From: Mobula hypostoma
Lineage: Eukaryota
Length of the DNA stretch: 60,000 bases
Direction of reading: 5' to 3'
Assembly (NCBI RefSeq): GCF_963921235.1
Contig: NC_086108.1
Coordinates: 60,452,001 to 60,512,000, forward strand
Part shown: positions 5,970 to 53,384 of the stretch, piece after piece
Position numbering within the stretch: position 1 is the stretch's first letter
Layout of the letters: the number at the start of each line of letters is the position of its first letter
Translations under genes and position numbers: made by a program
The notes under the pieces: model-generated
Seen by the model: the letters and a program-made list of their open reading frames with translations, nothing else
Database searches by the model: none
Told to the model about the DNA's origin: nothing

Positions 5970-7869
5970 TAAACACAAAATAATCTGCAGATGCTGTTGT
6001 CAAAGGAACACTCACAATGCGCTGGAGGAACTCAGCAGGTCAGTCAGCATCAGTTGAAAAGATTAGTCGACATTTCGGGCCGAAACCCTTTGTCAGGACT
6101 GAAGGAAGAACTTTGGGGAGGGTTTGAAGAATGCTGGTGGTTGAAAAAAACAGTAATTTGAAAGACAAAGGGGTGGGGGAGGGGAAGCAGGGAGGTGATT
6201 GGCAGGAGAACAATGCGCAGTAGTAGAAGGAGGTGGAACTATGAGGGAGGTGATGTGAAATAGGGATAGAGGAAGGGAGGGGGAGTGAATTACCGGAAGT
6301 TGGAGAATTCTATGTTCATACCAAGGGGCTGGAGACTACCTTGACAGTATATGAGGTGTTGCTCCTCCAACCTGAGTTTAGCCTCATCATGGCAGTAAAG
6401 GAGGCCATGTATGGACATATCCAAATGGGAATGGGAAGCAGAGTTGAAATAGGTGGCTGCTGAGAGATCCTGTCTGTTGTGGCGGACGGAGTAGAGGTGC
6501 TCGACGAAGCGGTCCCCCTGCGTCGGGTTTCACCGATGTAGAGGAGGCCGCACCGGGAGCACTGGATGCAATATATGACCCCAACAGACTCACAAGTGAA
6601 GTGTTGACTCACCTGGAAGGACTGTTTGGGGCCCTGAATGGCAGCAAGAGAGGAGGTGTAAGGACAGGTGTAGCACTTGTGCTTACAGGGATAAGTGCCA
6701 GGTGGGAGATCCGCGGGGAGGGATGCGTGGACCAGGGAGTCGCAGAGGGATCGATCTCTGCGGAAAGCAGAGAAGGGTGGAGAGGGAAAGGTGTGCTTAG
6801 TGGAGGGGTCCTGTTGAAGGTGGCAGAAGTTGCGGAGGATAATGTGCTGGATCCGGAGGCTGGTGGGGACAAGGGGAACTCTATCCCTGTTGTGGTGGCG
6901 GGAAGATGGGGTGAGGGCCGAAGTGCGGGAAATGGAGGAGATGCGGGTGAGGGCATCATTGATCACCATAGAAGGGAAACCACGATCCTTAAAGAAAGAG
7001 CACATTTGAGATGTCCTGGAATGGAAAGCCTCATCCTGGGAGCAGATGCGGCGGAGACAGAGGAACTGGGAACAGGGAATGGCATTTTTGCATGTGGCGG
7101 GGTGGGAAGAGGTATAGTCGAGGTAGTTATGAGAGTCAGTGGGCTTGTAGAAGATGTCAGTGGACAGTCTGTCTCCAGAGATGGAGACCGAGAGATCGAG
7201 AAAGGAGAGAGAAGTGTCTGAGATAGACCAAGTGAATTTGAGGGCTGGGTGGAAGTTAGAAGAAAAGTCGATGAAAATGACGAGCTCAGCATGGGTGCAG
7301 GAAGCAGCACCAATGTAATCGTCAATGTACCGAAGGAAAAGTTGGGGAGCAGTACCAGAATAGGTTTGGAGCACAGACTGTTCCACATAACCAACGAAGA
7401 GGCAGGCGTTGCTGGGTCCCATGCGAGTTCCCATAGCTACACCCTTAGTCTGAAGAAAGTGGGAAGAGACAAAAGAGAAGTTATTAAGTGTGAGAACCAG
7501 TTCCGCCAACCAGAGGAGGGTAGTGGTGGTGGGGACCTGGTGAGGTCTATTATCCAGGAAGTAGCGGAGGGCTTTGAGGCCTTCTTGATGGGGAATGGAG
7601 GTGTATAAGGATTGGACATCCATAGTGAAAATGAAGCGGTTGGGACCGGGGAACTGGAAGTTATTGAAGGGGTGGAGGGCATGGGATGTATCGCGGATGT
7701 AGGTGGGGAGGGACTGAACTATGGATGACAAAATGGAGTCCAGGTAGGCAGATACAAGTTTGGTTGGACAGGAGCAGGCAGAAACTATGGGTCTACCGGG
7801 GCAGTCAGGCTTGTGTATCTTTGGGAGGAGGTAAAACCAAGCGGTACGCGGTGTGGGAATAATGAGTTT
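5970..7869 (-). mobile_element. Penelope-like retroelement (Neptune type), 5'-truncated, second subfamily
   Basis: RT motifs (GVAMGTRMGP, YIDD), Cys/His linker, and GIY-YIG (VIYC...LYIGET) with a frameshift. Exact 13-bp TSD agctaatttatgg at 5957-5969 and 7870-7882. Confidence 0.93.
6065..6100 (-). ncRNA. Degenerate hammerhead motif of the second PLE subfamily
   Basis: Reverse complement reads AGTC CTGACAA AGGG tttcgg CCC GAAA TG TC GACT, with two CpG-type changes. Confidence 0.6.
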
Positions 7870-8360
7870 AGCTAATTTATGGCCTTGCCTGACCTGATCC
7901 AATTTCTATGGTTTTTGTAGCAATTCTCTAAAGGTCTTTGGTGACAATGCCACACAATTTGAGGTACATTTGCATGAATTTCCTGGAGAGGATACAGAAT
8001 TAGGTCTCACTGAATATTGTTTTATTTCTTTTTGAAATGACTGCCTTCCTCTTTGGCTTTCTATGTTAGACCACTAATGCAAGATTATATTAATACATTG
8101 TACAGGAGGCATACATTACAACTACCAAGATGTGAATTTTACATTGCAAACAATTTCTTAATAATCTCTAAATCTCCCTAAATATGAATGGTTCCACTCT
8201 GCTATGGCATGGAATAACTTCATTCATAATGTAAAATTGACTTAGGATTTGTTGCAGATAATTATATATTTAAGTAAACTGACTGTGCAAATGTTAATAG
8301 TGCTAGCTTGGCGAGACATTGGTAAGTGGGAGTCTTAATTCATTGATAAATATCTCAGTG

Positions 8361-8440
8361 CAGGAGTTCCCAACCCGTTTTATGTCATGGACCAATATCA
8401 TTAAGAAAGGGGCCTTTGAACCCCAGATTGGGAAGTGCTG
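8361..8440. mobile_element. 80-bp hAT-type MITE (related copy at 56864-56943)
   Basis: CAGG...CTG imperfect TIRs; flanks tctcagtg / tcttagag. Confidence 0.55.
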
Positions 8441-8733
8441 TCTTAGAGCCATGTTAAATTTTGTTTGGATGCCTGAATCATAATCAGGGCTAAAACTCAA
8501 GGTGGTTATCTTTTCCTTAGCCTAAGATTTCCCTAACTTCTGTAGCTAAGCACTCAATATAGCAGTGCAATATTTCATATGAGAGATTCTGCAGATGCTG
8601 GATGAAGGGCCCCAGATGAAGGGTTTAGGCCCAAACGTCGACTCTTTATTCCTGTCCATAGACGCTACCCAACCTGCTGAGTTCCTCCAGCGTTTTGTCT
8701 GTGTTGATGTGAATAACATATCTTTTTCCATAG

Positions 8734-8858: not shown

Positions 8859-8987
8859 GCTAGAAATTTTTAATGCCGTATTTTTATTATTAATGGTTGC
8901 CCACTGTTCAATATTAAAATAAAACAGGAGTCATGCTCTATCCTACTCATTAGCAGCCTTGCATGCCTCCCAATGTCCACTTACAGT

Positions 8988-9124
8988 CGCAAACACGAGG
9001 AAATCTGCAGACGCTGGAATTTCAAGCAACACACATAAAAGTTGCTGGTGAACGCAGCAGGCCAAGCAGCATCTCTAGGAAGAGGTACAGTCTACGTTTG
9101 GGGCCGAGACCCTTCGTCAGGCCC
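8988..9124 (-). mobile_element. 137-bp Penelope 3'-end insertion (hammerhead remnant plus tail)
   Basis: Closely matches the PLE termini at 26.8 kb and 48.1 kb. Exact 13-bp TSD gtccacttacagt at 8975-8987 and 9125-9137. Confidence 0.88.
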
Positions 9125-9426
9125 GTCCACTTACAGTGCTTGTTTTCCTTCTTCTAATCCCGTGGTTAGTATGAATAATATTTTCTGATCAAATTCCTCC
9201 TTTTTTGTTTAACATGGCTGTTATTTATTATTAGTCACTTTATAGTTTATTAGTTTAAGTAACTAACTAGTTACATAATACAATAAAAAAGCATAGGAAT
9301 TGATTGACAGATTTACTTTTCACTTTAACCTTTTCTGCTTTTTCTCCTTCTGCCTTTCACTCTCTCATTTCTCCTCTCTCATCTCAATGACTCCTGTTCA
9401 TTTATACCAGCCCTTCTGCATACCAT

Positions 9427-15880: not shown

Positions 15881-17868
15881 TTGTGGATTCCAGTTAATTG
15901 GATCATCAGTTAATTAGGGCAGGCTCTTTTATTTGGGACAACTCTAGAAGAACGAAAACTAATCAACAAAATAGCTGGGATTCCCTTTGTTCATTTGGGA
16001 CACTATGCCACTTAACTGGGGCTGGAGACTGTTGCTGAACAGTTTCAAATTAGTGTTAGACACGTACACTTGTGTAGCCGTTAAGCGTTACACTGTGCTT
16101 AGTGTGAACAGTTCTAAATAGCGCCAGTTGCATGTGCTTGTGTTCAAAAAACAGTGATTTTTGGCACTGAAAATTGACAAGAAATAAGCAGCAAGACAAT
16201 TCAGAACTAATTTGCTCACTGCAGTTCCAAGCATTCAGGCTTCAAGATGCCAGAGATGGTTGGGAGTGAAGAATGAAATGACTTCACTACTTCAATAAGT
16301 TAGCAACTACAAAGAATTTGAAGATATTGACATCATCTTGGATGTTGCAATGAAAGTGAAGAGTTGGAGGATGCAGTCATTGATAGCATTGTATAGAAGC
16401 AGTCCACAGTCCATAAAATCCACAGTGGATTCCAGTTAATTAGAACTCATAGGGACTACGACTTAAGCGGCTACCCCAATTAGAACATGTTCATGGAAAT
16501 AATTAAATAGGTATAAAAAAAGACAAAGTCTCATTTAATTAACAAGTTATGTATTTAAATAGTCATAGTCATAATTTATTGATCCCAGGGGAAATTGGTT
16601 TTTGTTACAGTTGCATAATAAATAATAAATAGTAATAGAACCATAAATAGTTAAATAGTAATATGTAAATTATGCCAGTAAATTATGAGATAAGTCCAGG
16701 ACCAGCCTATTGGCTCAGGGTGTCTGACCCTCCAAGGGAGGACTTGTAAAGTTTGATGGCCACAGGCAGGAATGACTTCCTATGACGCTCTGTGCTGCAT
16801 CCCGGTGGAATGAGTCTCTGGCTGAATGTACTCCTGTGCCCAACCAGTACATTATGTAGTGGATGGGAGACATTGACCAAGATGGCATGCAACTTAGACA
16901 GCACCCTCTTTTCAGACACCACCGTCAAAGAGTCCAGTTCTATCCCCATAACATCACTGGCCTTACGAATGAGTTTGTTGATTCTGTTGGTGTCTGCCAC
17001 CCTCAGCCTGCTGCCCCAGCACACAACAGCAAACATGATAGCACTGGCCACCACAGATTCGTAGAACATCCTCAGCATCGTCCGGCAGATGTTAAAGGAC
17101 CTCAGTCTCCTCAGGAAATAGAGACGGCTCTGACCCTTCTTGTAGACAGCCTCAGTGTTCTTTGACCAGTCCAGTTTATTGTCAATTTGTATCCCCAGGT
17201 ATTTGTAATCCTCCGCCATGTCCACACTGACCCCCTGGATGGAAACAGGGATCACCGGTACCTTAGCTCTCCTCAGGTCCATCACCAGCTCCTTAGTCTT
17301 TTTCACAGAATAAATTAGAACACTACCGATACTACTGGTGACTGTCTGTCGTATTCGACAATGACAGGAAATCTATGTGGGAGAGTTTTTAAAGTGGAAC
17401 AGCCATTGCACTGGGGCAGTTCCACTCTCTCGACCTTGGAAGTCTCCGTCCAGTGATATGAGTAGACGTCACAACTGGAGTTTTCCCTGGTTGCAGTGGA
17501 TGACCATGACCTCTTTTGTGCCTTGTCACGCCCTTCGCTCTCCACGTGGAGTTGTAGAACAGCCTTTCTGGCCATTAGATCTCACTGTAGATCTCATCCG
17601 CCCAGAATTCGCATGCTAGAACAGGGATATGAGACCTGCCAGCTATGCTCACTATTCGCTTTAAGCACAGTGTAGAGTCTAACAGCCACACAAGCACACG
17701 CAACTGACACTAGTTCAAAACTGTTCGACAGCAGTCTCCTAATCCAACCAAGGGGTCGTAGTGTCCCAAACAAATAAAGGGATTCCCTTTAGTTTTTGTT
17801 TTTTTAGAGTTGTCCCAAATAAGCAGCTGCCCTGATTAACCAATGTCCCAATTAACTGGAATCCACTG
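15881..17868. mobile_element. Tigger/pogo-like non-autonomous DNA element(s) with nested insertions, inside an older Rex1-like fragment
   Basis: TIR (ca)gtggattccagttaatt at 15881 and 16423; its reverse complement ends at 17868; TA flanks. Confidence 0.6.
16561..17306 (-). mobile_element. Rex1/Babar-like LINE 3' fragment
   Basis: ORF 16707-17306; (gtcata)n tail. Same family as 2458-3151. Confidence 0.88.
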
Positions 17869-18769: not shown

Positions 18770-18802
18770 GTTGATACCCATAAGTAAACATGCTTATGAA
18801 TA

Positions 18803-20388
18803 CAGGTGTCCCCCGCTTTTCAAACATTCGCTTTATGAAACCTCACTGTTACGAAAGACCTACATTAGTAACCTGTTTTCGCTTTCAGAAGGTGTTTTCA
18901 CTGTTACGAAAAAAAAGCACGCGATAAAAAAACAGCGCACGATAAAAGTCAGTGCACGCCCCGAGCAGCCGCTCTCCCCGGATTCGGAATGGCATTGCTT
19001 AAACACGTGCCTGTGAGCAGCCGTTTGCAAGATGAGTTCTAAGGTATCAGAAAAGCCTAAAAGAGTTCATCCTAAAGGTGTTACACTTGGCATAAAACTA
19101 GACATAATTAAGTGTTTTGATCGTGGTGAACGAAGTAAGGACAAAGTGCGTTTGGCTTGTGGAAGCTGACGAACATCATGTTGAAGAGGTTTTGGCATCC
19201 CATGACCAAGAATTGACAGATGAAGAGCTGATGCAATTGGACGAAAAAAGGATAACAATCGAAACTGAATGAGTAATAATAAAGTACGACTTTAATTTTG
19301 AAAGGGTATGTCGGTTTAGGGGATGTTTGCAGGATGGTTTGAGTCCTTACAAAGAACTGTGTGATAGAAAAATGCGCGAGGCTCAGCAGTCAAGCAAGCC
19401 TTCCACATCAGCCACAACAGATGACAAACCTCGACCTTCGACATCGAGGCGGGCAATCATAGGAGAAGATGAGCTGCCTGCTCTAATGGAAACAGAAGAT
19501 GACGAGATGTCACCCCAGTGTCCCACCACCCCAACCCCCAGGCCACAGACAGATACCGGTTCGTGGAGAATGCAACGGTAGCCGGGAGGCACACAGCACA
19601 TCTTTAAGAAAAAAGCCGAAACAAACATGCGAATTAATTAAGTGCCGCCCGACCCGTAATTGTCAGCCCAGATCATGGACGACGCAGTCAGAAATCGGCA
19701 CTGATCTGGGCCGACAATTACGTGCCGGACGGCACCTAATTAATTAGCATGCTTGTTTCCGCTTTTTTCTTAAGGATGTGCTGTGTGCCTCCCGGCTACC
19801 GCTGGACACCTGCATGCTTCGCGGCAATGTATCGCGCGGCGGCCTGGAGGGTGGGGGCCACTGCACCACCCAACCTGCGACAACTCAGCCTAACACACCA
19901 TCATCAGTGTGCTCGGCGCTGTCCCGATTCCAGTAAGTGATACTACACTGTACATACATTATTTCTACTTTAGATCGGCTGTGTATTTTTACGTGTTATT
20001 TGGTATGATTTGGCAGGTTCACAGCTTAAAGATTACTGGAGAGCGCTTGTGCCCCGTTTTTGCCAGTTGTGCTTGCGTGAGATTTTCTGCCGACGGCGCT
20101 TGTGTGAGATTTTCGCTACGGAGAACAGTTCAGTAATGATGGTGGAAAAGTATTTCTACTTTATATAGGCTGTGTATTTATCATATCATTCCTGTTTTTA
20201 CTATATGTTACTGTCATTTTAGGTTTTATGTGTTATTTGGCATGATTTGGTAGGTTATTTTTGGGTCTGCGAACGCTCACAAAATTTTCCCATATAAATA
20301 AATGGTAATTGCTTCTTCGCTTTACAACATTTCGGCTTACGAACCATTTCATAGGAACAGTCTACCTTCGGATGGTGGGGGAAACCTG
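18803..20388 (+). mobile_element. Tigger/pogo-like DNA transposon remnant
   Basis: TA|CAGGTGTCCCCC ... GGGGGAAACCTG|TA termini; decayed transposase-like fragments; inserted 33 nt after the CYP4 exon-7 donor. Confidence 0.75.
19576..19801. repeat. Internal inverted repeat with about 100-bp arms and a 26-nt loop
   Basis: 19576-19675 is the reverse complement of 19702-19801 with scattered mismatches. Confidence 0.9.
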
Positions 20389-23650: not shown

Positions 23651-24196
23651 GTGTTACAATTCAATAGGTTTTAAGATGAAAGAAAACTCTTACCTATTGA
23701 TGCATTGAATTACTTTTGGTGGATCCTATGTATATAGGATTATGAAGACATGTAGCCCTCTTTTATTATCATTTATTAATGCATGCATTAAGAAATAAAC
23801 ATTATTTCCTCCGGTATATTTTGTTTGTAAACAACTACTTTTCTGGACAAGCGATATCATGAATTCCAGATTAGGTGTATGCTGCTGTAAGTGACACATT
23901 GTTGATTCCAGCACAATAACAGTCATTATACTGTTTCTATGTCTCATGAAAATCATACATTAAGCCAATGAATCCTTTCAACTAAGCTTTTGGAATGCTC
24001 ACAACAGCTTTAGTGAGACTACAAAATGAGTGTAGGCATTATCAACAGTCTCTAGCACTGGCAAATTTTGTTACATTTTACCTAGAATGTTATGTTACTT
24101 CTGTTTAAACGTACCGTGGGTTAACAGTAAAGAATCATATTCTGGAAGAATTAGAGAACTTTTATTTACAGTAATAAACAAACACGTCTTAACTCA

Positions 24197-26865
24197 ACTC
24201 CTGGGCCCTCAGAGGCTCCACCTTCCTCTCACCCCAACCCTCCCCTCTCCACTGACACCCCCAGCCTCCCCCCTCCCCCCTCTGATCCCAGCTCTCATCC
24301 GTGCCGGGTCTCTACCATCCCCTCCGACCTTCAACTGTCGGAGGCAGAACGCTCTGTTCTCAGTAAGGGCCTCACGTTTGTCCCCCTTCGCCCACACCTC
24401 AGCGAGTTCCGTGTTCGCCATGATGCGGAACTTTTCTTCCGCCGTCCCCGTCTCCGAGCCTACTTCTTCAGCAAGGACTCTTCCACCCCCACCGATGACC
24501 CCTTCTCCCGTCTTCAACCCTCCTCTTCTTCATGGACACCCCGCTCTGGATCTCTTTATCACCAACTGCCGACGGGACATCAACCATCTCGACTTCACCG
24601 CACCTTGTCCCCATTCCAACCTCACTCCTTCGGAACGCTCTGCTCTCCACTCCCTCCGCACTAATCCTAACCTTATTATTAAACCCGCCGATAAGGGGGG
24701 TGCTGTTGTAGTCTGGCGTACTGACCTCTACTTTGCCGAGGCACAGCGACAACTCGCGGATACCTCCTCTTACTTACCCCTCGATCGTGACCCCACTAAG
24801 GAGCACCAGGCCATTGTCTCCCACACCATCACCGACTTCATCCGCTCAGGGGATCTCCCATCCACTGCTACCACCCGTATAGTTCCCACACCCCGCACTT
24901 CCCGTTTCTGCCTCCTACCCAAGATCCACAAACCTGCCTGTCCTGGCTGACCTATTGTCTCAGCTTGCTCCTGCCCCACCGAACTCGTTTCTGCATACCT
25001 CGACACGGTTTTATCCCCCCTTGTTCAATCCCTTCCTACCTATGTTCGTGACACTTCTCACGCTCTTAAACTTTTCGATGATTTTAAGTTCCCTGGCCCC
25101 CACCGCTTTATTTTCACCATGGATGTCCAGTCCCTATATACTTCCACCCCCATCAGGAAGGTCTCAAAGCTCTACGCTTCTTTTTGGATTCCAGACCTAA
25201 TCAGTTCCCCTCTACCACCACTCTGCTCCGTCTAGCGGAATTAGTCCTTACTCTTAATAATTTCTCCTTTGGCTCCTCCCACTTCCTCCAAACTAAAAGT
25301 GTAGCTATGGGCACCCGTATGGGTCCTAGCTATGCCTGCCTTTTTGTTGGGTTTGTGGAACAATCTATGTTCCGTGCCTATTCTGGTATCTGTCCCCCAC
25401 TTTTCCTTCGCTACATCGACGACTGCATTGGCGCTGCTTCCTGCACGCATGCAAAACTTGTTGACCTTATTAACTTTGCCTCCAACTTTCACCCTGCCCT
25501 CAAGTTTACCTGGTCCATTTCCGACACCTCCCTCCCCTTTCTAGATCTTTCTGTCTCTGTCTCTGGAGACAGCTTATCCACTGATGTCTACTATAAGCCT
25601 ACTGACTCTCACAGCTATCTGGACTATTCCTCTTCTCACCCTGTCTCTTGCAAAAACGCCATCCCCTTCTCGCAATTCCTCCGTCTCCGCCGCATCTGCT
25701 CTCAGGATGAGGCTTTTCATTCTAGGACGAGGGAGATGTCTTCATTTTTTAAAGAAAGGGGCTTCCCTTCCTCCACTATCAACTCTGCTCTTAAACGCAT
25801 CTCCCCCATTTCACGTACATCTGCTCTCACTCCATCCTACCGCCACCCCACTAGGAATAGGGTTCCCCTGGTCCTCACCTACCACCCCACCAGCCTCCGG
25901 GTCCAACATATTATTCTCCGTAACTTCCGCCACCTCCAACGGGATCCCACCACTAAGCACATCTTTCCCTCCCCCCCCTGCATTCCGCAGGGATCGCTCC
26001 CTACGCAACTCCCTTGTCCATTCGTCCCCCCAATCCCTCCCCACTGATCTCCCTCCTGGCACTTATCCGTGTAAGCGGAACAAGTGCTACACATGCCCTT
26101 ACACTTACTCCCTTACCACCATTCAGGGCCCCAAACAGTCCTTCCAGGTGAGGCAACACTTCACCTGTGAGTCAACTGGGGTGATATACTGCGTCCGGTG
26201 CTCCCGATGTAGCCTTTTATATATTGGCGAGACCCGATGCAGACTGGGAGACTGCTTTGCTGAACATCTACGCTCTGTCCGCCAGAGAAAGCAGGATCTC
26301 CCAGTGGCCACACATTTTAATTCCACATCCCATTCCCATTCTGACATGTCTATCCACGGCCTCCTCTACTGTAAAGATGAAGCCACACTCAGGTTGGAGG
26401 AACAACACCTTATATTCCGTCTGGGTAGCCTCCAACCTGATGGCATGAACATCGACTTCTCTAACTTCTGCTAAGGCCCCACCTCCCCCTTGTACCCCAT
26501 CTATTACTTATTTTTATACACACATTCTTTCTCTCACTCTCCTTTTTCTCCCTCTGTCCCTCTGAATATACCTCTTGCCTATCCTCTGGGTCCCCCCCCT
26601 TGTCTTTCTTCCCGGACCTCCTGTCCCATGATCCTCTCGTATCCCCTTTTGCCTATCACCTGTCCAGCTCTTGGCTCTATCCCTCCCCCTCCTGTCTTCT
26701 CCTATCATTTTGGATCTCCCCCTCCCCCTCCTACTTTCAAATCCCTTACTCACTCTTCCTTCAGTTAGTCCTGACGAAGGGTCTCGGCCTGAAATGTCGA
26801 CTGCACCACTTCCTACAGATGCTGCCTGGCCTGCTGCGTTCACCAGCAACTTTGATGTGTGTTGC
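24197..26865 (+). mobile_element. Penelope-like retroelement (Neptune type), frameshifted RT plus GIY-YIG
   Basis: IKPADKGGAVVV, AMGTRMGPSYACLF, YIDD, CKRNKCYTC...HFTC linker, VIYC...YIGET, LQPDGMNIDF. Flanks cgtcttaactca / cgtcttaaccca. Inserted into an LTR. Confidence 0.95.
26767..26802 (+). ncRNA. Minimal hammerhead motif with one C>T change (GAAATGTC)
   Basis: AGTC CTGACGA AGG gtctcgg CCT GAAA TG TC GACT. Confidence 0.75.
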
Positions 26866-27360
26866 GTCTTAACCCAGCCATGTGCTGGAACATTCCGGCA
26901 ATCCCCCGCATGCTCAGTGCTCTGTCCAATCATGTACTGGCACATCATTGCACGTGATATCAGCACATCTTCTTTTCCATAAAAAGAAAAACAATTAACA
27001 ACATTAATCAAAACATATCTATATCAGATAACTGAAACTCTGAAGTTGGCTCTTTCTTAAAGCCTTTGCGATTCTTTCTTAACACCACTCCCTTCTCTGT
27101 TTGGACCATGTATGATCTGGTCTGTGTCCATGTGTTCCTTTTATCTTGTATCCTCACTTTGTCTCCTTGTCCTTCAACCAAACATCTCCTTAGATCAGTC
27201 AATTCATTTTCCACTTCCATTTGTAATGAAATATGAATCTTCTTTTCATAAATCTAATTCATTCATTATCTGTATAATCTCTTTCTTATGCTGAGACTTC
27301 GTAATTTCAATAATACTTCTCAATTCCTTCACTTGTGCTTTCACTTCTTCCTTATACTGT

Positions 27361-30787: not shown

Positions 30788-32497
30788 GTCTGTGAGCAAT
30801 CCAAATTCGCATGTTCAACTACACTTTCTTAACTCAGTAACATACTGTTCAATTGTTTCAGCGGCTCTCTGAAGACATGTGAATAATTTATATCACTCAT
30901 ACAATAAATTACGCTTAGGTATACAAAATACTTCAACTCTGTCCATGATTGACTTTAAATTGAAATTATGTCCATCTCCAAAGACAAAATTTTTATATAC
31001 CTCTACTGCATCATTCCCGATTACATGGAGCAAAAGCGCAGCTTTGGTTTTTTCCGATTTTTCTTCATAATCGATCGCTGATAAATGCAGTTCAGACCGT
31101 TGCTTGAATATCCTCCAATTCTCAGCTACATTGCCAGTCAGCTGAAGTTTTGGTGGAGGTTGTAAACCTTCCATCTTACCGTTTACAGTTCGAACTTTGC
31201 TCTCCTCTTTTTTTTCGATTATCTTCGATTCTCGATTCTCCCGTATTATTCTTTCAGAACCACTTCTGACACCATGTTATGTTACTTCTGTTTAAACATA
31301 CCATAGGTTAACAGTAAAGAATCATCTTCTGGAAGAATTAGAGAACTTTTATTTACAGTAATAAACAAACACATCTTAACCCAGCCACGTGCTGGAACAT
31401 TCTGGCAATCCCACACATACTCAGTGCTCTGTCCAATCATGCACTGGCACATCATTGCAAGTGATATCACCACATCTTCCTTTCCTTGAAAAGAAAAATA
31501 ATTAACAACGATAATCAAAACACATCTATATCAGGTAACTGAAACTCTGAAGTTGGCTCTTCCTTAAAGCCTTTGCGATTCTCTCTTAACACCGCTCCCT
31601 CCTCTGTTTGGATCTCCTCTGTTATGATCTGGTCTGTGTCCATGTGTTCTTTTTATCTTGTATCCTCACTTTGTCTCCTTGTCCTTCAGACAAGTGTCTC
31701 CTTAGTCAGTCAATTCCCACCCTTGTTGTTCTTGCAGACTTTAATTTCATAGAGCTTTGTGAATCAAAGGGTTAGTTGTTGCAAATGACACACCTAGCTC
31801 TAATCTGGCTCTTCTTTATCATTTTCAAGGGGTTGGTTGGGCTGGGTGGATGTATCTTTATTCAGTGACTAAAGCTTCTTCCTCCGTTGATCATTTGCTG
31901 AATGTTCCTTCTGGGAAAGGAATGGTCTGAAAATTTGCATCTTGAAATGGTGGAAGAGCTATTTAAAGAATCGCGTTATCAGCTTTACTATAGTGGAAAA
32001 ATCAATTCCATTAAGAGACTTGATGAATTCCAAGAGGAATAACCAACAAGAGAAAAAAGATGCAAAAAGCATCATTAACTAAATGCTGGGCCTATGACTG
32101 ATAGGAATGAATTTCAATCATTGACCTTAACTTTAAGTGCATATAAATGTATGAGGCACTTACAGGTAATGAAAGTTAAATTAGGTGTGCCGATGCATTT
32201 CTAAATTTGCTGTACAACCTGATGGCTTATCAGGTCTAGTGTGGTCAAAGCAGCCCCTAAAACATCAAAAAATCAACATGTAGAAATCAGGGATTGTTCC
32301 TAAAGAAAGAATATTATGTTTTTTTTTCCAGCTTTTAAGTCGACATCATAAATATTATTAGTGAAGACTGGGGAATATTACCTCATTGTCATCTGGCCAG
32401 GAAGGTAGAGTCATGCATAAAAACTGTAACAGGAGTAATCAGTTGATATACACTTATTTGTCAGATTGACTGAGGTTATTTAATTATATTTCCACAG

Positions 32498-35213: not shown

Positions 35214-36326
35214 TAGTAGTAGTAGTAGTAGTAGTAGTCATACTTTATTAATCCCGGGGGAAATTGGTTTTCGTTACAGTTGCTCCATAAATAATAAATA
35301 GTAATAGAACCATAAATAGTTAAATAGTAATATGTAAATTATGCCAGGAAATAAGTCCAGGACCAGCCTATTGGCTCAGGGTGTCTGACCCTCCAAGGGA
35401 GGAGTTGTAAAGTTTGATGGCCACAGGCAGGAATGACTTCCTATGACCCTCAGTGCTGCATCTCAGTGGAATGAGTCTCTGGCTGAATGTACTCCTGTGC
35501 CCAACCAGTACATTATGTAGTGGATGGGAGACATTGACCAAGATGGCATGCAACTTAGACAGCATCCTCTTTTCAGACACCACCGTCAGAGAGTCCAGTT
35601 CCATCCCCGCAACATCACTGGCCTTACAAATGAGTTTGTTGATTCCGTTGGTGTCTGCTACCCTCAGCCTGCTGCCCCAGTACACAACAGCAAACATGAT
35701 AGCACTGGCCACCACAGACTCGTAGAACATCCTCAGCATCGTCCGGCAGATGTTAAAGGACCTCAGTCTCCTCAGGAAATAGAGACGGCTCTGACCCTTC
35801 TTGTAGACAGCCTCAGTGGTCTATGACCAGTCCAGCTTATTGTCAATTTGTATCCCTAGGTAATTGTAATCCTCCACCATGTCCACACTGACCCGCTGGA
35901 TGGAAACAGGGGTCACCGGTACCTTAGTTCTCCTCAGGTCTACCACCAGCTCCTTAGTCTTTTTCACATTAAGCTGCAGATAATTCTGCTCACACCATGT
36001 GACAAAGTTTCCTACCGTAGGCCTGTACTCAGCCTCATCTCCCCTGCTGATGCATCCAACTATGGCAGAGACATCCGAAAACTTATGAAGATGATAAGAC
36101 TCTGTGCAGTAGTTGAAGTCCGAGGTATAAATGGTGAAGAGAAAGGGAGACAAGACAGTCCCCTGTGGAGCCCCAGTGCTGCTGATCACTCTGTCGGACA
36201 CACAGTGTTGCAAGTACACGTACTGTGGTCTGCCAGTCAGGTAATCAAGAATCGATGATACCAGGGAAGCATCCACCTGCATCGCTGTCAGCTTCTCCCC
36301 CAGCAGAGCAGGGCGGATGGTGTTCA
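35214..36326 (-). mobile_element. Rex1/Babar-like LINE with tail expanded into (TAG)n
   Basis: GAPQGTVLSPFLFTIYTSDF, NVKKTKELVVDLRR. Same family as the 2458 and 16561 copies. Confidence 0.9.
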
Positions 36327-36339
36327 TATGAGTTTCCTT

Positions 36340-37070
36340 CATTGGTAAGACTCTTGGAAGTCTGGAGGATCAGAAGGATCTTGGGGTCTGAGTCCATAGG
36401 CACTCAAAGCTGCTGTGCAGGTTGACTCTGTGGTTAAGAACGCATACAGTGCATTGGCCTTCATTAATCGTGGGATTGAGTTTAGGGGCCAAGAGGTAAT
36501 GTTGCAATGACATAGGACCCTGGTCAGACCCCACTTGGAGTACTGTGCTCAGTTCTGGTCGCCTCACTATAGGAAGGATGTGGAAACCATAGAAAGGGTG
36601 CAGAGCAGACTTACAAGGATGTTGCCTGGATTGGGGAGCATGCCTTATGAGAATAGGTTGAGAGCCTTTTTTCCTTGAAGTAACGGAGGATGAGAGATGA
36701 CCTGATAGAGGTGTATAAGATGATGAGAGGCATTGATCATGTGGATAGTCAGAGGCTTTTTCCCAGGGCTGAAATGGCTAGCACGAGAGGGCACAGGTTT
36801 AAGGTGCTTGGGAGTAGGTACAGAGGAGATGTCAGGGGTAAGTTTTTTATGCAGAGAGTGGTGAATGCGTGGAATGGGCTGCCGGCAACGGTGGTGGAGG
36901 TGGATACGATAGGGTCTTTTAAGAGACTTTTGGATAGGTACATGGAGCTTAGAAAAATAGAGGGCTATGGGTAACCCTAGTAATTTCTAAGGTAGGGACA
37001 TGTTCGGCTCAACTTTGTGGGCCGAAGGGCCTGTATTGTGTTGTAGGTTTTCTAAATTTCTATGTTTCTA
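36340..37070 (+). mobile_element. CR1 LINE 3' fragment
   Basis: LVRPHLEYCAQFW-type sequence, MRDDLIEVYKMMRG, (tttctatg) tail. Confidence 0.9.
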
Positions 37071-38894: not shown

Positions 38895-38944
38895 ACTTTC
38901 TCCTTCATTGGATTTTCAAAGAAAATTTGAAAATGCTCCCATGA

Positions 38945-39157
<213 letters not shown>

Positions 39158-42969: not shown

Positions 42970-44815
42970 GGTCATTGGGTCTTGGGTCATTTGCGGTTGG
43001 GAAGTAATGCTTGAATTCTGTCGACAGCGAAGTTAGGTGATCGCACACCAGCTGTGAGAAGGACGGTGCAGCCCCAGTCTCTCCCAAAATCCCAGCTAAT
43101 GTTGGGAACATGTCAAATATGCCCCTGTCCACTCGCCGTCCCCACAGTTCCAGTTTGGCTTTGAAAACAGACACTTTATCTGCCAACTTGTCATTCTCCC
43201 CTGAAGTGACAAATTGAGTTCATTGAGCAGGTTGATGTCACACAGATAAGCGAGTTTTGCAATCCTCTCCTCGTCACTGAAGTGTGCTGCCAGTGGTGAC
43301 TTTTTTCCTGAAAAGAAATCTCTGCAGCTGCTCTCTTAACTCAAAAACCCTGGCCAGGGCTGTCCCCCTTGATAGCCACCTGACCAGTGTGTAAGAGAAG
43401 GTGTTTGTGCTCTGCATCCATTTCCTCGCAAAGCTGCTCAAACAGACGTGAGTTAGGGCTTTTGCTTTGATGTGATTGATGACTTCAACAACATCACTCA
43501 ATACGCTGTTAAGATCAGGTGACATTTTTTGGCTAGCCAGCATTTCCCTGTGTGTGACACAGTGTGTAGACTGGCATTCAGGAGCAACCCCTTTGACTTG
43601 GGTAGTGAAACCAGACAGCCGTCCAGTCATAGCTGCAGCCCAGTCTGTGCATATTCCAACACAGAATGACCAGTCCAGTTTGCCTGACATGTAGTCATTC
43701 AAAGACTTGAATAGTTCTGCCCCAGTTGTGTTAGTTGGCAGTGGCAGTACACACAACATATCCTCGTGTACATCGTCTTGAAATATATATCGCACATAAA
43801 CCAGCAGTATTGCCTTGTTGTCAACATCGGTAGACTCGTTGACCTGGATAGCATACCATGGTGACTCGTTAAGCCGTTCCAACAGCTGTGTTTTGATGTC
43901 CTCCGCTATGTCATTGATTCTCCTTGAAACTGTGGTAGCTGAGAGAGAAACTTGTGCCATCTTGTTAGCTGCAGCTTCTCCCAACAGTTCAAGGCACACG
44001 TCCTTGGCAGCAGGCAGAATCAATTCTTCACCAACAGTGAAAGGCTTCTTAGCCTTAGCAATACGGCTAGCCACTAAGTACGATGCTCTCAGAGCAGCAG
44101 CATTTGTGGAGGTAACACACGTAAAAGTTGCTGGTGAACGCAGCAGGCAGTCAGGACGAAGGGTCTCGACCCAAAACGTCGACTGTACCTCTTCCTAGAG
44201 ATGCTGCCTGGCCTGCTGCGTTCACCAGCAATTTTTATGTGTGTTGCTTGAAGTTCCAGCATCTGCAGATTTCCTCGTGTTTGCATTTGCGGAGGTGGTG
44301 ACTCTCAGCACTTGCTTCTGTCCCGCTTGCTCACGTTTTTTTCCGCTCAAAAGACTCATCGGGTTTGTCTTTAAGTGCAGGTGCTTGGACTCAAGGAGCC
44401 GAAGCAGTTTTGAGGGCTTCATTGCCTCATTAGACAGCTTGTCTCCACATATCACACACGGGGTGCTTGCGAGTCACCGGTCACATTAAAGCCATATTTT
44501 ATGTACAACTCGTCATATTTTCTGTTGAAGGAAGCTTTCTTTTATTTTTGCAGTCTTGGCCTCAGCTGTCTCTGCATTATCATCATCGATAGGCCTTTTA
44601 TGTCCCCTACCACCTCTTCCAAAGAAACTCTCAATAATGTTTGTTTTTTACTCATCGAGTAGTTGTAGGTTAATGACCAACTGATGACCTCGCATGTGTT
44701 CAAGTTCAACAGCGGGCGTGACAGGGAATGAGGAAAGGTGCAGCTGACTCATATCGTCAAATCATATCGTTTCCTCGCAGCCCGGTAGCACATGCTTTGC
44801 GGCCCGGTGGTTGGG
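42970..44815 (-). mobile_element. hAT Charlie/Buster-type transposon (ZBED5/SCAND3-like transposase), degraded
   Basis: CGDKLSNEAMKPSKLLR, RIAKAKKPFTVGEELILPAA, ESTDV, GICTD, THCVTHREML. Confidence 0.9.
44114..44282 (+). mobile_element. 169-bp Penelope-end insertion with a short inverted arm
   Basis: 44114-44148 is the reverse complement of 44211-44245 with 3 mismatches. TSD gcatttgYggaggt at 44100-44113 and 44283-44296. Interrupts the hAT transposase. Confidence 0.88.
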
Positions 44816-44839
44816 CCTATTTAATATAGGACTAATTAG

Positions 44840-47498: not shown

Positions 47499-48129
47499 GA
47501 AATTTAATAAATAATTTAATAATAAATAAGGACTCTCTCGAGATTCTTTTTATACACTCTTGGAAGATTAACAACCAAGTAGACAGTTCTACGAAATGAT
47601 AAAGTTCGGGGTACTTTAGATTCCGCCTGCTCGTGAAGTGTGGAGGATCCAGAGCAGAAAAGGAAGGAAGCTGCTTTACTTACACTGGGTTGCAGATATG
47701 CGTTTGGAAAAAAGTTCAAAACTATGACAGCAAGTTTCTAATTTTGAACTTTCCCTGCTGCAACAAAATGTTTGCAGGTCAATAAAATAAAAATGATACA
47801 ACTTGCATATACAAAGTGCATAAGCACCACTCAAAGCACTGGATAATTGCCCATAGGCCTCTTGGAAATCTAGCTTCCTCTGCTACAACATCACAATAAA
47901 ACTGCTGCATAGAAAATAACCAATTCTTTAGCTACATTAGTCCATCCAAACTGATGCAACTTACTAGATGTTCTCCTCTCATCAATCAAACTACACCCAC
48001 TGTACATGCCAATATTAGAATAAAAAGAAGTGAACAACAGGAATTCTGCAGATGCTGGAAATTCAAGCAACACACATCAAAGTTGCTGGTGAACGCAGCA
48101 GGCCAGGCAGCATCTATAGGAAGAGGCGC

Positions 48130-48165
48130 AGTCGACGTTTCAGGCCGAGACCCTTCGTCAGGACT
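48130..48165 (-). ncRNA. Minimal type I hammerhead ribozyme motif (intact core)
   Basis: Exact reverse complement of 51204-51239. Confidence 0.85.
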
Positions 48166-51100
48166 AACTGAAGGAAGAGTGAGTAAGGGATTTGAAAGCT
48201 GGAGGGGGAGGGGGAGATGCAAAATGATAGGAGAAGACAGGAGGGGGAGGGATGGAGCCAAGAGCTGGACAGGTGATAGGCAGAAGGGGATACGAGAGGA
48301 TCATGGGACAGGAGGTCCGGGAAGAAAGACGGGGGGGGGGTGACCCAGAGGATGGGCAAGAGGTATATTCAGAGGGACAGAGGGAGAAAAAGGAGAGTGA
48401 GAGAAAGAATGTGTGCATAAAAAAGAGTAACAGATGGGGTACGAGGGGGAGGTGGGGCCTAGCGGAAGTTAGAGAAGTCAATGTTCATGCCATCAGGTTG
48501 GAGGCTACCCATACGGAATATAAGGTGTTGTTCCTCCAACCTGAGTGTGGCTTCATCTTTACAGTAGAGGAGGCCGTGGATAGACATGTCAGAATGGGAA
48601 TGGGATGTGGAATTAAAATGTGTGGCCACTGGGAGATCCTGCTTTCTCTGGCGGACAGAGCGTAGATGTTCAGCAAAGCGGTCTCCCAGTCTGCGTCGGG
48701 TCTCACCAATATATAAAAGGCCACATCGGGAGCACCGGACGCAGTATATCACCCCAGTCGACTCACAGGTGAAGTGATGCCTCACCTGGAAGGACTGTTT
48801 GGGGCCCTGAATGGTGGTAAGGGAGGAAGTGTAAGGGCATGTGTAGCACTTGTTCCGCTTACACGAATAAGTGCCAGGAGGGAGATCAGTGGGGAGGGAT
48901 GGGGGGGACGAATGGACAAGGGAGTTGTGTAGGGAGCGATCCCTGCGGAATGCAGAGAGAGGGGGGGAGGGGAAGATGTGCTTAGTGGTGGGATCCCGTT
49001 GGAGGTGGCGGAAGTTACGGAGAATAATATGTTGGACCCGGAGGCTGGTGGGGTGGTAGGTGAGGACCAGGGGAACCCTATTCCTAGTGGGGTGGTGGGA
49101 GGATGGAGTGAGAGCAGATGTACGTGAGATGGGGGAGATGCGTTTAAGAGCAGAGTTGATAGTGGAGGAAGGGAAGCCCCTTTCTTTAAAAAATGAAGAC
49201 ATCTCCCTCGTCCTAGAATGAAAAGCCTCATCCTGAGAGCAGATGTGGCGGAGGCGGAGTAATTGCGAGAAGGTGATGGCGTTTTTGCAAGAGACAGGGT
49301 GAGAAGAGGAATAGTCCAGATAGCTGTGAGAGTCAGTAGGTTTATAGTAGACATCAGTGGATAAGCTGTCTCCAGAGACAGAGACAGAAAGATCTAGAAA
49401 GGGGAGGGAGGTGTCGGAAATGGACCAGGTAAACTTGAGGGCAGGGTGAAAGTTGGAGGCAAAGTTAATAAAGTCAACGAGTTCTGCATGCGTGCAGGAA
49501 GCAGCACCAATGCAGTCGTCGATGTAGCGAAGGAAAAGTGGGGGACAGATACCAGAATAGTCCCTATATACTTCCATCCCCCATCAGGAAGATCTCAAAG
49601 CTCTACGCTTCTTTTTGGATTCCAGACCTAATCAGTTCCCCTCTACCACCACTCTGCTCCGTCTAGCGGAATTAGTCCTTACTCTTAATAATTTCTCCTT
49701 TTGCTCCTCCCATTTCCTCCAAACTAAAGGTGTAGCTATGGGCACCCGTATGGGTCCTAGCTATGCCTGCCTTTTTGTTGGGTTTGTGGAACAATTTATG
49801 TTCCGTGCCTATTCTGGTATCTGTCCCCCACTTTTCCTTCGCTACATCGACGACTGCATTGGCGCTGCTTCCTGCACGCATGCAAAACTCGTTGACTTTA
49901 TTAACTTTGCCTCCAACTTTCACCCTGCCCTCAAGTTTACCTGGTCCATTTCCGACACCTCCCTCCCCTTTCTAGATCTTTCTGTCTCTGTCTCTGGAGA
50001 CAGCTTATCCACTGATGTCTACTATAAGCCTACTGACTCTCACAGCTATCTGGACTATTCCTCTTCTCACCCTGTCTCTTGCAAAAACGCCATCCCCTTC
50101 TCGCAATTCCTCCGCCTCCGCCGCATCTGCTCTCAGGATGAGGCTTTTCATTCTAGGACGAGGGAGATGTCTTCATTTTTTAAAGAAAGGGGCTTCCCTT
50201 CCTCCACTATCAACTCTGCTCTTAAACGCATCTCCCCCATCTCACGTACATCTGCACTCACTCCATCCTCCCACCACCCCACTAGGAATAGGGTTCCCCT
50301 GGTCCTCACCTACCACCCCACCAGCCTCCGGGTCCAACATATTATTCTCCGTAACTTCCGCCACCTCCAACGGGATCCCACCACTAAGCACATCTTCCCC
50401 TCCCCCCATCTCTCTGCTTTCCGCAGGGATCGCTCCCTACACAACTCTCTTGTCCATTCGTCCCCCCCATCCCTCCCCACTGATCTCCCTCCTGGCACTT
50501 ATCCGTGTAAGCGGAACAAGTGCTACACATGCCCTTACACTTCCTCCCTTACCACCATTCAGGGCCCCAAACAGTCCTTCCAGGTGAGGCATCACTTCAC
50601 CTGTGAGTCGACTGGGGTGATATACTGCGTCCAGTGCTCCCGATGTGGCCTTTTATATATTGGTGAGACCTTACGCAGACTGGGAGACCGCTTTGCTGAA
50701 CATCTACGCTCTGTCCGCCAGAGAAAGCAGGATCTCCCAGTGGCCACACATTTTAATTCCACATCCCATTCCCATTCTGACATGTCTATCCACGGCCTCC
50801 TCTACTGTAAAGATGAAGCCACACTCAGGTTGGAGGAACAACACCTTATATTCCGTATGGGTAGCCTCCAACCTGATGGCATGAACATTGACTTCTCTAA
50901 CTTCTGCTAGGCCCCACCTCCCCCTCGTACCCCATCTGTTACTCTTTTTTATGCACACATTCTTTCTCTCACTCTCCTTTTTCTCCCTCTGTCCCTCTGA
51001 ATATACCTCTTGCCCATCCTCTGGGTCACCCCCCCCCCGTCTTTCTTCCCGGACCTCCTGTCCCATGATCCTCTCGTATCCCCTTCTGCCTATCACCTGT

Positions 51101-51203
51101 CCAGCTCTCGGCTCTATCCCTCCCCCTCCTGTCTTCTCCTATCATTTTGCATCTCCCCCTCCCCCTCCAGCTTTCAAATCCCTTACTCACTCTTCCTTCA
51201 GTT

Positions 51204-51239
51204 AGTCCTGACGAAGGGTCTCGGCCTGAAACGTCGACT
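51204..51239 (+). ncRNA. Minimal type I hammerhead ribozyme motif in the Penelope 3' end (intact core)
   Basis: AGTC CTGACGA AGG gtctcgg CCT GAAA CG TC GACT: helix I AGTC/GACT, CUGANGA core, helix II AGG/CCT, GAAA, palindromic ACGT in place of helix III, UC cleavage site. Confidence 0.85.
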
Positions 51240-53384
51240 GCGCCTCTTCCTATAGATGCTGCCTGGCCTGCTGCGTTCACCAGCAACTTTGATGTGTGTT
51301 GCATAAGAAGAAGTGAATTGACAATCCCTATAATACTGTGTGAATACGAGTTGAGTAACACTTGGAGGGGCATTGAGAACTGGAAGGGGATGGAATGTAG
51401 ACTGAGTTTGAGACCTCACCATTTACCATCAGAGGTGTCTCATTGAATTATCAATGACTAAGTAGGCTTGTTCCTATAAAGCATAGCTTGTAGACTCGAC
51501 TGAGAACAGGTAGAAGAAAACCATTATGAGAGATCTGGTCATTCTCAGAAATTTAACTGTTGCAGATTCATCTTCAATATTGTAAGGGGAAACTACATCA
51601 TAATCCTTGTGGAGGCAAAGCTCATACTGAGAAAGCACTACATCATATCATATACGTGTACCACTACTACAGTAAACATAACTTCACAATAGACCTAACT
51701 TTTGTAATTTGAAACTGTAGATTATCAACAGTTACATGGTATATTTCACCACACCCTGTAATTCATGGCCTAGTCTATTCACATGTTATATTATCATCAG
51801 GTAAAGGTACCAACCTTTTCTTAAGGTGATGCATAGAGCCTGGTAGGTGTAGCATCAGACCTATATAAAAATAATGTGCCAACGAGGTGAAGCAGCAGCA
51901 CAAACATGCCAAATATAGCAGCCTCCCATCCGCCCAACAATCTCTTTGATCCTTTACCATCAGGCAGAAGGTACCACAGTACTAGGACAAGGACTGTTAG
52001 GATGGGAAGCAGCTTCCTCCCCCAGGCTGTGAGACTATGGAACTCCCTGCCACCAGCCAGGTCTCATCACATTATGAAGCACCAGCAGCGTTATACTGTT
52101 TTACCTTTTAACTCCTGTCATAAGTTCACCTTATTATTTGTTAATTTATTTGTATTAATATTACTTAATGTGTTGTGTGTGAGGGGAACGTTGGTCCAGG
52201 GTATTGTTGTTTCGTTTAGCGGCATACATGTATATGGTTGAATGACAATAAACTTGAACTTGAGAACAACACAGTAACTGGCCCATCCAGTCCATGCCAA
52301 TCTGATATTCTACCTAATTCCAGCTACCAGCAGCCACACCATATCTCTCCAAACCCCTCTCATCCACGTACCTACCCAAACTTCTCTTAAATTTTACAAT
52401 TAATCTTCCATCTACCATTTCTGCCCGCAATTCATTCCACACTCAAAGAGAAGTTTCCCTTCAGATTGCCCTTCAATATTTCATCTTTCACTCTAAACTT
52501 ATATGACCTTTAGTTCTAGTCTCATGCATTCACCCTATAATCAAAAGTAGCAACTAATAGAGTTTGACCATCCCACAATCATCAGACCTGATTAACACTC
52601 TGCAATCCTGTCGTATTTGATTATGTAGTGGTGGACAATTAAACAGGTAACTGACTAACATAAGGTAGTGGTGACACAATACATACTGTACTAAACTCCA
52701 GATAATGCAATGGCTAGAAGAGAAAAGAGGCTCATATCAGGGGAATGGATGTCAACTCAGGAAGATGAGAAGACAGATATGGAAAGTGTACCACCAGCCC
52801 AGTTGATTGCGAACAGCAAAGCTCGGGAACAAGCTTACAACCCAAGATCCCTCTGTACATCAGTGCCCTAAGTGGCCTGCCAATTTTCTTTATTTTCCTC
52901 TCGTACCGAACCTCCCAAAATATATATCTCACACTTGTCTGGATGAAGCTCCAGCTGCTATTTCTCCATCAAAATTTCCAACCAATCCATATCCTACTCT
53001 ATCTTTTTACAATCTTCGTCACTATCCACAACACACCAATTTACTTACTTACTTATTTAGAGATACAGCGTGGTACCAGACCTTCGAGAAGTGCCACCAG
53101 CAACCCACTGATTTAACTCCAGCCTGATCACAGGCAAATTTACAATGACCAATTAACCTACTAATCAGTGTCTGTCATCGGCAAACTTACTAATTAGTCC
53201 ACTTTCACTCAAATTATCAACATATATTACAAACAGTAGCTCAATTGTTCAACATCACTAACAATTTTGTATCCACATTACCAGCTCACTTTAACTTAAT
53301 CTTCTGGACCAGCTTGCCACAACATCTACTGCCCTATCTTCATTAATCATCTTCATTAATCATCTTCATCATCTCCACAAAACA

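Follow-up and report, generated by a model that had tools for sequence, protein, structure and literature searches.

How do copies of a retroelement only 100-170 nt long, bearing a ribozyme motif, come to stand alone beside long copies of the same element? The question is raised by a 60,000-nucleotide stretch of the Mobula hypostoma genome (the window; NC_086108.1, positions 60,452,001 to 60,512,000), in which a preliminary description had recognised Penelope-like elements (PLEs) with minimal hammerhead ribozymes and, next to them, short insertions of their terminal region. The latter had been proposed to be either extreme 5' truncations or a retrozyme- or SINE-like parasite. Positions along the element are given below relative to the predicted hammerhead cut site, negative upstream and positive downstream.

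The sequences support the assignment of the window elements to PLEs with a reverse transcriptase (RT) and a GIY-YIG domain, of the Neptune/Nematis type by their linker, and with a hammerhead in the pLTR. The RVT_1 domain is matched at 6316-7902 (Pfam, E 3.7e-8) and GIY-YIG at E 2.4e-4, just under the Pfam cut-off; at a further locus, L214, a 1043-aa open frame holds both, weakly scored, in the arrangement of EN+ PLEs, a single ORF with RT and C-terminal GIY-YIG. In L214 and at 48462-49583 of the window a CX4CxxC linker precedes the GIY-YIG; linkers of the form CX2-5CxxC belong to Neptune/Nematis and are missing from Penelope/Poseidon (PMC8557442). A Poseidon assignment was dropped after this linker check. 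The wider architecture is likewise that of EN+ PLEs, with pLTRs from partial or full tandems (14/19 near-full-length subfamily A loci), inverted 5'-truncated neighbours and one tail only (15/17 and 9/9 inverted pairs). The element has two 3' ends, at +67 and +101. The family is young and abundant, and both the element and its ribozyme motif are of an already described sort. The copies and motifs in the window are these:

48033..49560, minus strand: tail-bearing arm of a head-to-head PLE insertion of the young subfamily A, 5'-truncated at -1427, with the GIY-YIG end of the ORF, 3' UTR, hammerhead and tail
49561..51302, plus strand: partner arm in that insertion, lacking the tail and reaching from -1677 to +67
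51204-51239, plus strand: intact minimal type I hammerhead, predicted cut after 51235
48165-48130, minus strand: intact minimal hammerhead, identical in sequence to 51204-51239
24194..26865, plus strand: long subfamily A copy, 5'-truncated and tail-less, spanning -2629 to +67, 9-bp exact TSD
26767-26802, plus strand: hammerhead with CG>TG in the palindrome
5970..7869, minus strand: long subfamily B copy, 5'-truncated but tail-bearing, between TSDs of 13 bp (5957-5969 / 7870-7882)
6316-7905: RT ORF of the 5970..7869 copy
6100-6065, minus strand: hammerhead with G8>A and CG>TG
8988..9124, minus strand: short solo copy with tail, start about -31/-28
44114..44282: miniature head-to-head insertion, 14-bp TSD with 1 mismatch
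44114-44148, minus strand: tail-less arm of 44114..44282, +31 to +65
44149-44282, plus strand: tail-bearing arm of 44114..44282, start -31, core C3, U4 and G12 changed
3916..4010, minus strand: older short copy whose core has decayed; doubtful TSD of 10 bp with 1 mismatch (3902 and 4026)
8580..8705: older miniature head-to-head pair, an inverted tail piece followed by a decayed core and pLTR end on the plus strand
2330..2444, minus strand: old decayed short copy
55908..55962, minus strand: weak pLTR-end fragment without catalytic core

The two arms at 48033-51302 form one head-to-head insertion, flanked by a 15-bp TSD with 1 mismatch (48020-48034 / 51303-51317). All four motifs first noted at long PLE 3' ends, intact at 48130 and 51204 and mutated at 26767 and 6065, were found again, as were the tail-only copies at 3916, about 8580, 8988, 44114 and 2330; the one at 55910 is visible by eye only and was missed by blastn and nhmmer. 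Two supposed simple solos, at 44114 and about 8580, each consist of two short pieces joined head to head. Three short copies had been credited with TSDs of 13-14 bp, and those at 8988 (13 bp, exact; 8975-8987 / 9125-9137) and 44114 (14 bp) stand, leaving 3916 with its doubtful repeat; a TSD search at the 8580, 2330 and 55910 copies found none. The catalytic core is intact in 0/6 short window copies, with G12 and C17 changed in 8988..9124.

The intact motif at 51204-51239 comprises a 4-bp helix I, a CUGACGA core, an extra A ahead of helix II, a 4-bp helix II with a tetraloop, GAAA and a palindromic ACGU, an architecture that matches the minimal PLE hammerhead of PMC4209133. It has every feature of the minimal type I form: CUGANGA, GAAA-NN-UH, helices I and II, an extra nucleotide after A9 and palindromic 15.2-16.2. 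The domain matches and this published motif bear out the original identification of element and ribozyme. A profile yielded 316 matches in 1.62 Mb of genome versus 0 in reversed sequence; an Rfam scan gave no match to hammerhead families at E<=1. The catalytic core is intact in 56 of the 157 motif-spanning copies, and helix pairs are kept at 70-95%. As to covariation in helices I and II, the common changes are one-sided only (G-U/G-C 68/66; U-G/U-A 133/12), and two-sided changes, found in at most 5/157 copies, are CpG-like. Folding z-scores are not significant (0.13, 1.37, 0.11, -1.83, -0.66, -1.52), which is evidence neither way because a motif without helix III is expected to behave so. The minimum-energy fold of the ribozyme region is an alternative hairpin closed by helix I, and in the predicted folds the active hammerhead form is less favoured than an alternative hairpin or a duplex. 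Cleavage by PLE hammerheads is weak in vitro, and was dispensable for insertion in the one PLE reconstituted.

Because subfamily boundaries distorted an initial histogram of endpoints, the counts used here are those for the young subfamily and those based on TSDs; they rest on samples, with young copies drawn from 1.62 Mb of genome, and the short/long cut-off was chosen after data inspection. In this sample 32/68 young copies end at -14 to -62 from the cut site, about 10 times the background: the stop hazard per 100 nt is 1.72 at -14..-38 (25/68) and 0.73 at -39..-62 (7/43), against 0.06-0.17 in six other bins. The rate ratio for the stop zone versus -63..-600 is 10.6 (p ~1e-15), or 9.4 with the window and its neighbours left out. 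The pattern was replicated among the matches listed by an exact-motif search, where 11 of 19 distinct insertions are short. Endpoints defined by TSDs only were obtained for 25/234 solo matches, versus 2-7 in three swapped-flank controls, and non-A TSD-defined ends lie at -48..-30 in 8/12 cases. For subfamily B, 1/8 ends fall in the stop zone (p 0.13 versus subfamily A). Starts of short arms are widely spread, from -72 to -9, most often at the opening bases of helix I (12/52 at -31/-30), with another 12/52 reaching -46..-72. Ends also occur at +5, +6, +7 and +9, which weakly suggests that cleaved templates or stalls occur on rare occasions. We found no paper in the literature on this endpoint cluster.

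The suspected non-random stop point is supported by these counts, and plain extreme 5' truncation is not, because the stop rate rises roughly 10-fold in one zone. Ordinary random truncation, with the pile-up an artefact of subfamilies that have only the ribozyme and tail in common, is extremely improbable: such an artefact is genuine for diverged subfamilies, and single motifs are termed truncated PLEs in PMC4209133, but the pile-up remains in copies mostly 90-99% identical to the full-length or long reference, TSDs adjoin the start in many of these, and the background hazard is flat outside the stop zone, whose counts already contradict this account. Ends at the cut site itself (-2..+3) number 0/72 among young copies, which rules out cleavage products as the source of the short copies; cleaved linear RNA is not their template.

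The arms of inverted pairs are concordant in 25/25 cases (16 short with short, 9 long with long, 0 mixed; random pairing p ~1e-7). Tail-started and tail-less arms stop alike (medians -31 and -34, p 0.14), and a ruler measured from initiation, with its 34-nt shift, is rejected (p 2e-6). Where a copy stops depends on the template or the RNP and not on chance in each cDNA. A simple fold-back origin of inverted pairs is rejected for 6/15 one-tail pairs, in which the tail-less arm extends further upstream; two separate cDNAs are often needed for head-to-head insertions. Full-length subfamily A copies show no stop at an upstream ribozyme in any of 17 passages (p 1.4e-4 versus 32/68), or 1/19 if two jumped pieces are counted (p 9e-4).

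It is conceivable, if rather unlikely, that the RNA extends upstream and that in some RNPs the ribozyme region, folded or protein-bound, halts the RT at helix I or causes its release, a state resembling a template boundary and common to both cDNAs of one insertion. The mode exactly on the first bases of helix I, the concordance of arms (compatible with a per-RNP state), the hairpin closed by helix I and the protein-assisted ribozyme of the anole PLE (PMC11167929) would agree with this; yet the RT reaches helix I from its 3' side (+4) and the ends fall beyond the whole motif, the upstream ribozyme is passed without a stop in full-length copies, and the arms at -46..-72 lie past the helix.

Another alternative, that the short copies belong to a non-autonomous family of SINE or retrozyme type with its own master loci, mobilised by the PLE enzyme, is very unlikely. 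Such copies are very numerous (about 69,000 young short arms genome-wide by extrapolation) and have TSDs, and for animal retrozymes an origin from pLTRs has been reported (10.64898/2026.07.22.740005). A parasite of this kind is at odds with a tree in which short copies lie among long ones; identical rows occur in both classes, and each of the four commonest diagnostic variant classes holds both; there is no fixed 5' end or private sequence, and tandem arrays of the short unit are absent among 74 young copies. Clades of their own, which had been considered for the short copies, did not emerge: short/long labels change 19 times versus a shuffled mean of 22.4-22.5 (48/500 shuffles as low), in a weak tree of 75 columns only, with which a small minority short-only lineage is compatible. 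The earlier assumption that interleaving means plain truncation fails as well, as interleaving and a sharp endpoint cluster co-occur.

The reading we prefer, at a probability of about 0.55 and from sequence comparison, is that the short stand-alone copies are run-off cDNA spanning the stretch between the pLTR-ORF junction and the 5' end of uncleaved RNA. In a different PLE, of the Poseidon type (PMC11167929), RT initiates internally at two sites, both target strands are cut and extended, ORF sequence downstream of the start sites is required, and the main substrate is uncleaved RNA. The PLE enzyme of the window element would likewise begin just downstream of the ribozyme, copy only 100-170 nt and run off an uncut RNA whose 5' terminus probably lies at the first bases of helix I. 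This end may be the transcription start, at an initiator-like motif with +1 at -31. Since they miss the downstream ORF stretch, the short copies would be dead on arrival. Full-length subfamily A copies starting at -31/-35 of the upstream pLTR, as expected of unit-length mRNA, were not found, and the run-off model therefore needs a second template class: long and more-than-unit copies would come from RNA without an end at helix I, either tandem read-through RNA or a circle produced by ribozyme cleavage and ligation.

If YYANWYY and BBCABW are taken, as we assume, for initiator motifs, their +1 positions in the pLTR (-59, -46 and -31; -46 and -35) coincide, post hoc, with the main and minor clusters. 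Several points weigh against run-off: the biochemistry is borrowed from Poseidon whereas the window element has a Neptune/Nematis-type linker, the initiator motifs are degenerate and their pyrimidine-A steps resemble splice acceptors as well as bonds at which RNA is labile, subfamily B has only the one end in the stop zone, and the wide spread from -72 to -9 implies more than one sharp start. An untemplated G at the junction is a sign of a cap, as in L1; it was not consistent at the junctions read.

The template end might instead come from processing, either a splice-related end at a 3' splice site immediately ahead of helix I or a cut made within the pyrimidine tract by a nuclease or small RNAs, which we consider quite unlikely. 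Branch-point-like, pyrimidine-tract and CAG/TAG sequence does lie immediately upstream of helix I, and in D. virilis the intron of Penelope terminates at the helix I 5' end (PMC4209133), but no upstream exon sequence is common to the short copies, TSDs adjoin varied starts, and the predicted branch point has no pile-up (1/52 arms at -46). Contigs from four presumed-RNA runs, which cannot show starts, contained no clear splice joint and no pile-up of starts or ends.

Building on run-off, we tentatively suggest two PLE template classes between which the ribozyme might switch retrotransposition from abortive to productive. A linear uncut transcript from the first hammerhead base would yield inserts of 100-170 nt by twin priming and run-off, and cleavage by the ribozyme together with circularisation would remove the 5' end and license long and more-than-unit copies; the short copies would then be a genomic map of the transcript start. 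About half of the young copies are tiny, presumably dead inserts that end at the upstream edge of the motif, not at the cut site, and tens of thousands of young TSD-bounded copies offer a fossil read-out on the role of the PLE hammerhead.

Among known systems, non-LTR (animal) retrozymes (10.64898/2026.07.22.740005) resemble the short copies in being non-coding, pLTR-related dispersed monomers with a type I hammerhead. Retrozymes are tandem units, each with a complete ribozyme, whereas the short copies are solos or head-to-head pairs, lack tandem units and form no clade of their own. PAc, the green anole Poseidon, also has two 3' ends, separated by about 34 nt and lying downstream of the ribozyme, and gives both-strand products with no sign of cleaved RNA as template, as far as the available part of PMC11167929 goes, which holds no analysis of PAc 5' endpoints. 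It belongs to a different clade by linker motif, and its ORF starts within the ribozyme, whereas the open frame of the window element starts at +58 or later. Discrete 100-170 nt inserts starting at the edge of helix I, with concordant arms, are not described for Neptune/Nematis EN+ PLEs in the accessible portions of PMC4209133 and PMC8557442; in all else compared, those elements are alike: an ORF with RT, C-terminal GIY-YIG and CX4CxxC linker, a minimal type I motif in the pLTR with an extra nucleotide between 9 and 10.1 and a palindromic helix III, mostly single motifs, partial tandems, an adjacent inverted truncated copy, and a 30-40 nt tail at one end.

A motif search recovered all four hammerhead sites of the preliminary description (intact at 48130 and 51204, mutated at 26767 and 6065), and the ORFs upstream of the motif match RVT_1 and GIY-YIG. 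The ribozyme-bearing features and short copies of the window, with their target-site duplications (TSDs), are:

51204-51239, plus strand: intact hammerhead motif (motif search)
48165-48130, minus strand: intact hammerhead motif (motif search)
at 26767 and at 6100: mutated hammerhead motif
8988-9124: tail-only copy, clear TSD of 13 bp
44114-44282: tail-only copy, clear TSD of 14 bp with 1 mismatch
about 3916-4010: tail-only copy, doubtful TSD of 10 bp
8580-8705: tail-only copy
2330-2444: tail-only copy
55908-55962: weak fragment without the core

Three features of the motif, namely an extra A ahead of helix II, a short helix I and a palindromic ACGU, recur in the minimal hammerhead of PMC4209133, and this agreement suggests that the motif is, as had been proposed, of the type carried by Penelope-like elements (PLEs). 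Among 157 copies spanning the motif the core is intact in 56, and the helix I and II pairs are 70-95% kept, the changes in them being one-sided or due to CpG decay. An Rfam scan gave no hammerhead match for the motif in the window, and folding of the motif region gave no significant result. Directly before helix I, window 51170-51207 combines branch-point-like, pyrimidine-tract and AG sequences, resembling a 3' splice site.

Short copies had been described at six places, three of them with TSDs of 13-14 bp. Five are indeed tail-only copies, whereas the sixth is the core-less fragment; TSDs are clear at 8988 and 44114 and doubtful at 3916, and none was found at 8580-8705, 2330-2444 or 55908-55962. 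The core is intact in 0/6 of these short copies. 48033-51302 is a single head-to-head insertion with a 15-bp TSD. A Gypsy-like LTR element (24087-31705) encloses the PLE copy at 24194-26865 in one of its repeats: the two parts of this repeat, 24087-24196 and 26867-27193, match 31274-31705. In the ORF of the LTR element, 29062-30828, SCAN, zinc knuckle and integrase zinc-binding matches were found. The miniature insertion at 44114-44282 breaks a longer minus-strand open frame, 43274-44194 (within 43274-44400), which has no Pfam match and looks like a DNA-transposon remnant. Elsewhere in the window, 19573-19804 is a MITE-like 110-nt inverted repeat with a 12-nt spacer and only below-threshold miRNA-family matches in Rfam, and a further repeat (2430-3079, 16560-17372 and 35229-36369; 92-96% similar), whose frame matches Pfam ALKBH8_N, probably represents LINE 3' ends.

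From the 3.48-Gb genome we drew 1.62 Mb on four contigs at round coordinates, the window and an adjoining 50 kb included, and searched this sample with a profile built from 45 natural copies. It gave 316 matches against 0 in a reversed-sequence control, which, if the sample is typical, extrapolates to about 680,000 genome-wide. An exact 33-mer of the youngest subfamily occurs 6,368 times (control, 0). Protein searches found many open frames above 1,000 aa. Long frames or tandem spacing led us to retrieve 20 loci; in 12 of these the frame runs to 1035-1043 aa, the unit measures about 3.5 kb, and three loci are tandems. Many subfamily A copies (places listed by the protein searches, and loci L212-L230) combine such 1035-1043-aa frames with near-identical repeats, including 3.5-kb tandems. 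Subfamily A is a very young family and possibly still active.

We number positions from the predicted cut site (C17 = 0; window 51235 and 48134). The raw histogram of 5' ends peaks at -40..-20, but it is confounded by subfamily boundaries; we therefore turned to 74 young copies of the A group, with natural copies, either full-length or long, as references. Leaving out one that was the reference itself and one cut by the sample edge reduced them to 72. Stops per 100 nt are 0.13 at +31..-13, 1.72 at -14..-38, 0.73 at -39..-62, 0.06 at -63..-162 and 0.13-0.17 as far as -2700. The rise to 1.72 and 0.73 in this zone, against 0.06-0.17 in the other bins, speaks against plain extreme 5' truncation, one of the origins first suggested, and makes random truncation the least likely account. 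With 32/68 young copies stopping in -14..-62, the suspected non-random stop near the ribozyme core is borne out. A second sample, the first 20 among the matches listed for the exact 33-mer, holds 19 distinct insertions (loci L248 and L249, one duplicated insertion, counted once), 11 of them short among those listed. TSDs abut the start in many short copies. Ends within the zone are found in 8/12 older-subfamily copies with TSD-defined ends (-48..-30) and in only 1/8 of subfamily B, the second subfamily of the window. At block B152, position 18352, a short copy with an 8-bp TSD sits inside the ORF of another PLE copy and supplies an internal empty-site control.

Among 52 pooled short arms, 12 begin on the opening bases of helix I (-31/-30); minor groups lie at -35/-34 (5) and -59/-58 (4). 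An RNP boundary at helix I would place ends here, and we regard it as possible though doubtful; a processed RNA end as the source of the stop appears unlikely. No stop falls at the cut site (-2..+3; 0/72). A few 5' ends at +5, +6, +7 and +9 (the B177 pair and loci L212 and L204), just past the predicted cut site, weakly hint at rare cleaved templates or a stall on the 3' side of helix I.

The 3' ends lie at about +65-72 or at +101, the latter including a tail. In subfamily A the open frame begins at +58, so the tail shares the reading frame of the ORF. Exactly one of the two arms carries the tail in 15/17 inverted pairs of the 1.62-Mb sample and 9/9 of the second. As the tail-less arm extends further upstream in 6 of the 15, which fold-back of a single cDNA cannot yield, we infer two cDNAs behind these pairs.

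Several causes of the stop could be rejected. A stop set by the length copied would shift tail-started and tail-less arms by 34 nt, yet their medians are -31 and -34. Across both samples, 16 inverted pairs are short+short, 9 long+long and 0 mixed (one duplicated-junction pair counted once; short/long cut-off picked after a gap was seen in the data), ruling out an independent chance per cDNA. Pair gaps in the first 100 among the 33-mer matches listed, a set overlapping the second sample, are 26-154 nt in 13 cases and 859-3285 nt in 4. An obligatory sequence stall is excluded by near-full-length A copies, with 0 zone stops in 17 crossings of the upstream ribozyme (1 in 19 with two jumped pieces included), and by subfamily B (1 in 20); the crossing A copies end at -233 to -2153, agreeing with the background rate. 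Their two repeats differ on average by 2.3 of 260 nt within a locus (13 loci) against 6.2 between loci. Finally, a SINE- or retrozyme-like parasite, the other origin first suggested, would make the short copies a separate family; in a weak tree (70 rows, 75 columns) short/long labels change 19 times (22.4-22.5 on average after shuffling), and common variant classes contain both alike, which argues against such a family and renders this reading very unlikely.

The simplest account, to which we give a probability of roughly 55%, is an uncut template whose 5' end lies at helix I or slightly upstream of it; uncut, because the cut site is contained in the short copies. On this view the enzyme would act at the junction of pseudo-LTR and ORF, close to the 5' end of the transcript, and each nick would yield one run-off cDNA of 100-170 nt, whereupon the cDNA ends would be trimmed and joined; long copies would have to come from tandem read-through RNA or from circular RNA, of which PMC4209133 proposes the latter. 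Initiator-like motifs, compared post hoc with the consensus, have their +1 at -31, -35, -46 and -59. Against run-off, the ends are broadly spread and no unit-length copy starting at -31/-35 was found.

Also against the run-off account, its biochemistry is borrowed from the anole element, for which PMC11167929 describes a template that must hold ORF sequence beyond the start sites, cutting and extension of both strands, and insertion persisting in ribozyme mutants. Neither the motif nor the occurrence of solo copies is new: PMC4209133 describes both, with motifs mostly single and linked to truncated PLEs, and also reports pairs on opposite strands. What is added here are the arm-concordance, pass-through and ruler tests of the short-copy stop; among the papers listed by the literature searches, no title or abstract describes 5' ends clustering at helix I or arm concordance. 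The host is presumably a cartilaginous fish, and the element itself is a further PLE of already known type. Its one-tail pairs agree with the single PLE tail described in PMC8557442 and PMC3846280 and with the anole element's pair of RT start sites (PMC11167929). Its linker reads CX4CxxC, a type that PMC8557442 assigns to Neptune and Nematis rather than Penelope/Poseidon, so that by linker motif it would be placed with the former. With D. virilis Penelope, whose transcription starts within the pseudo-LTR upstream of the ribozyme (PMC2377424), it shares the 3' splice-site-like sequence before helix I.
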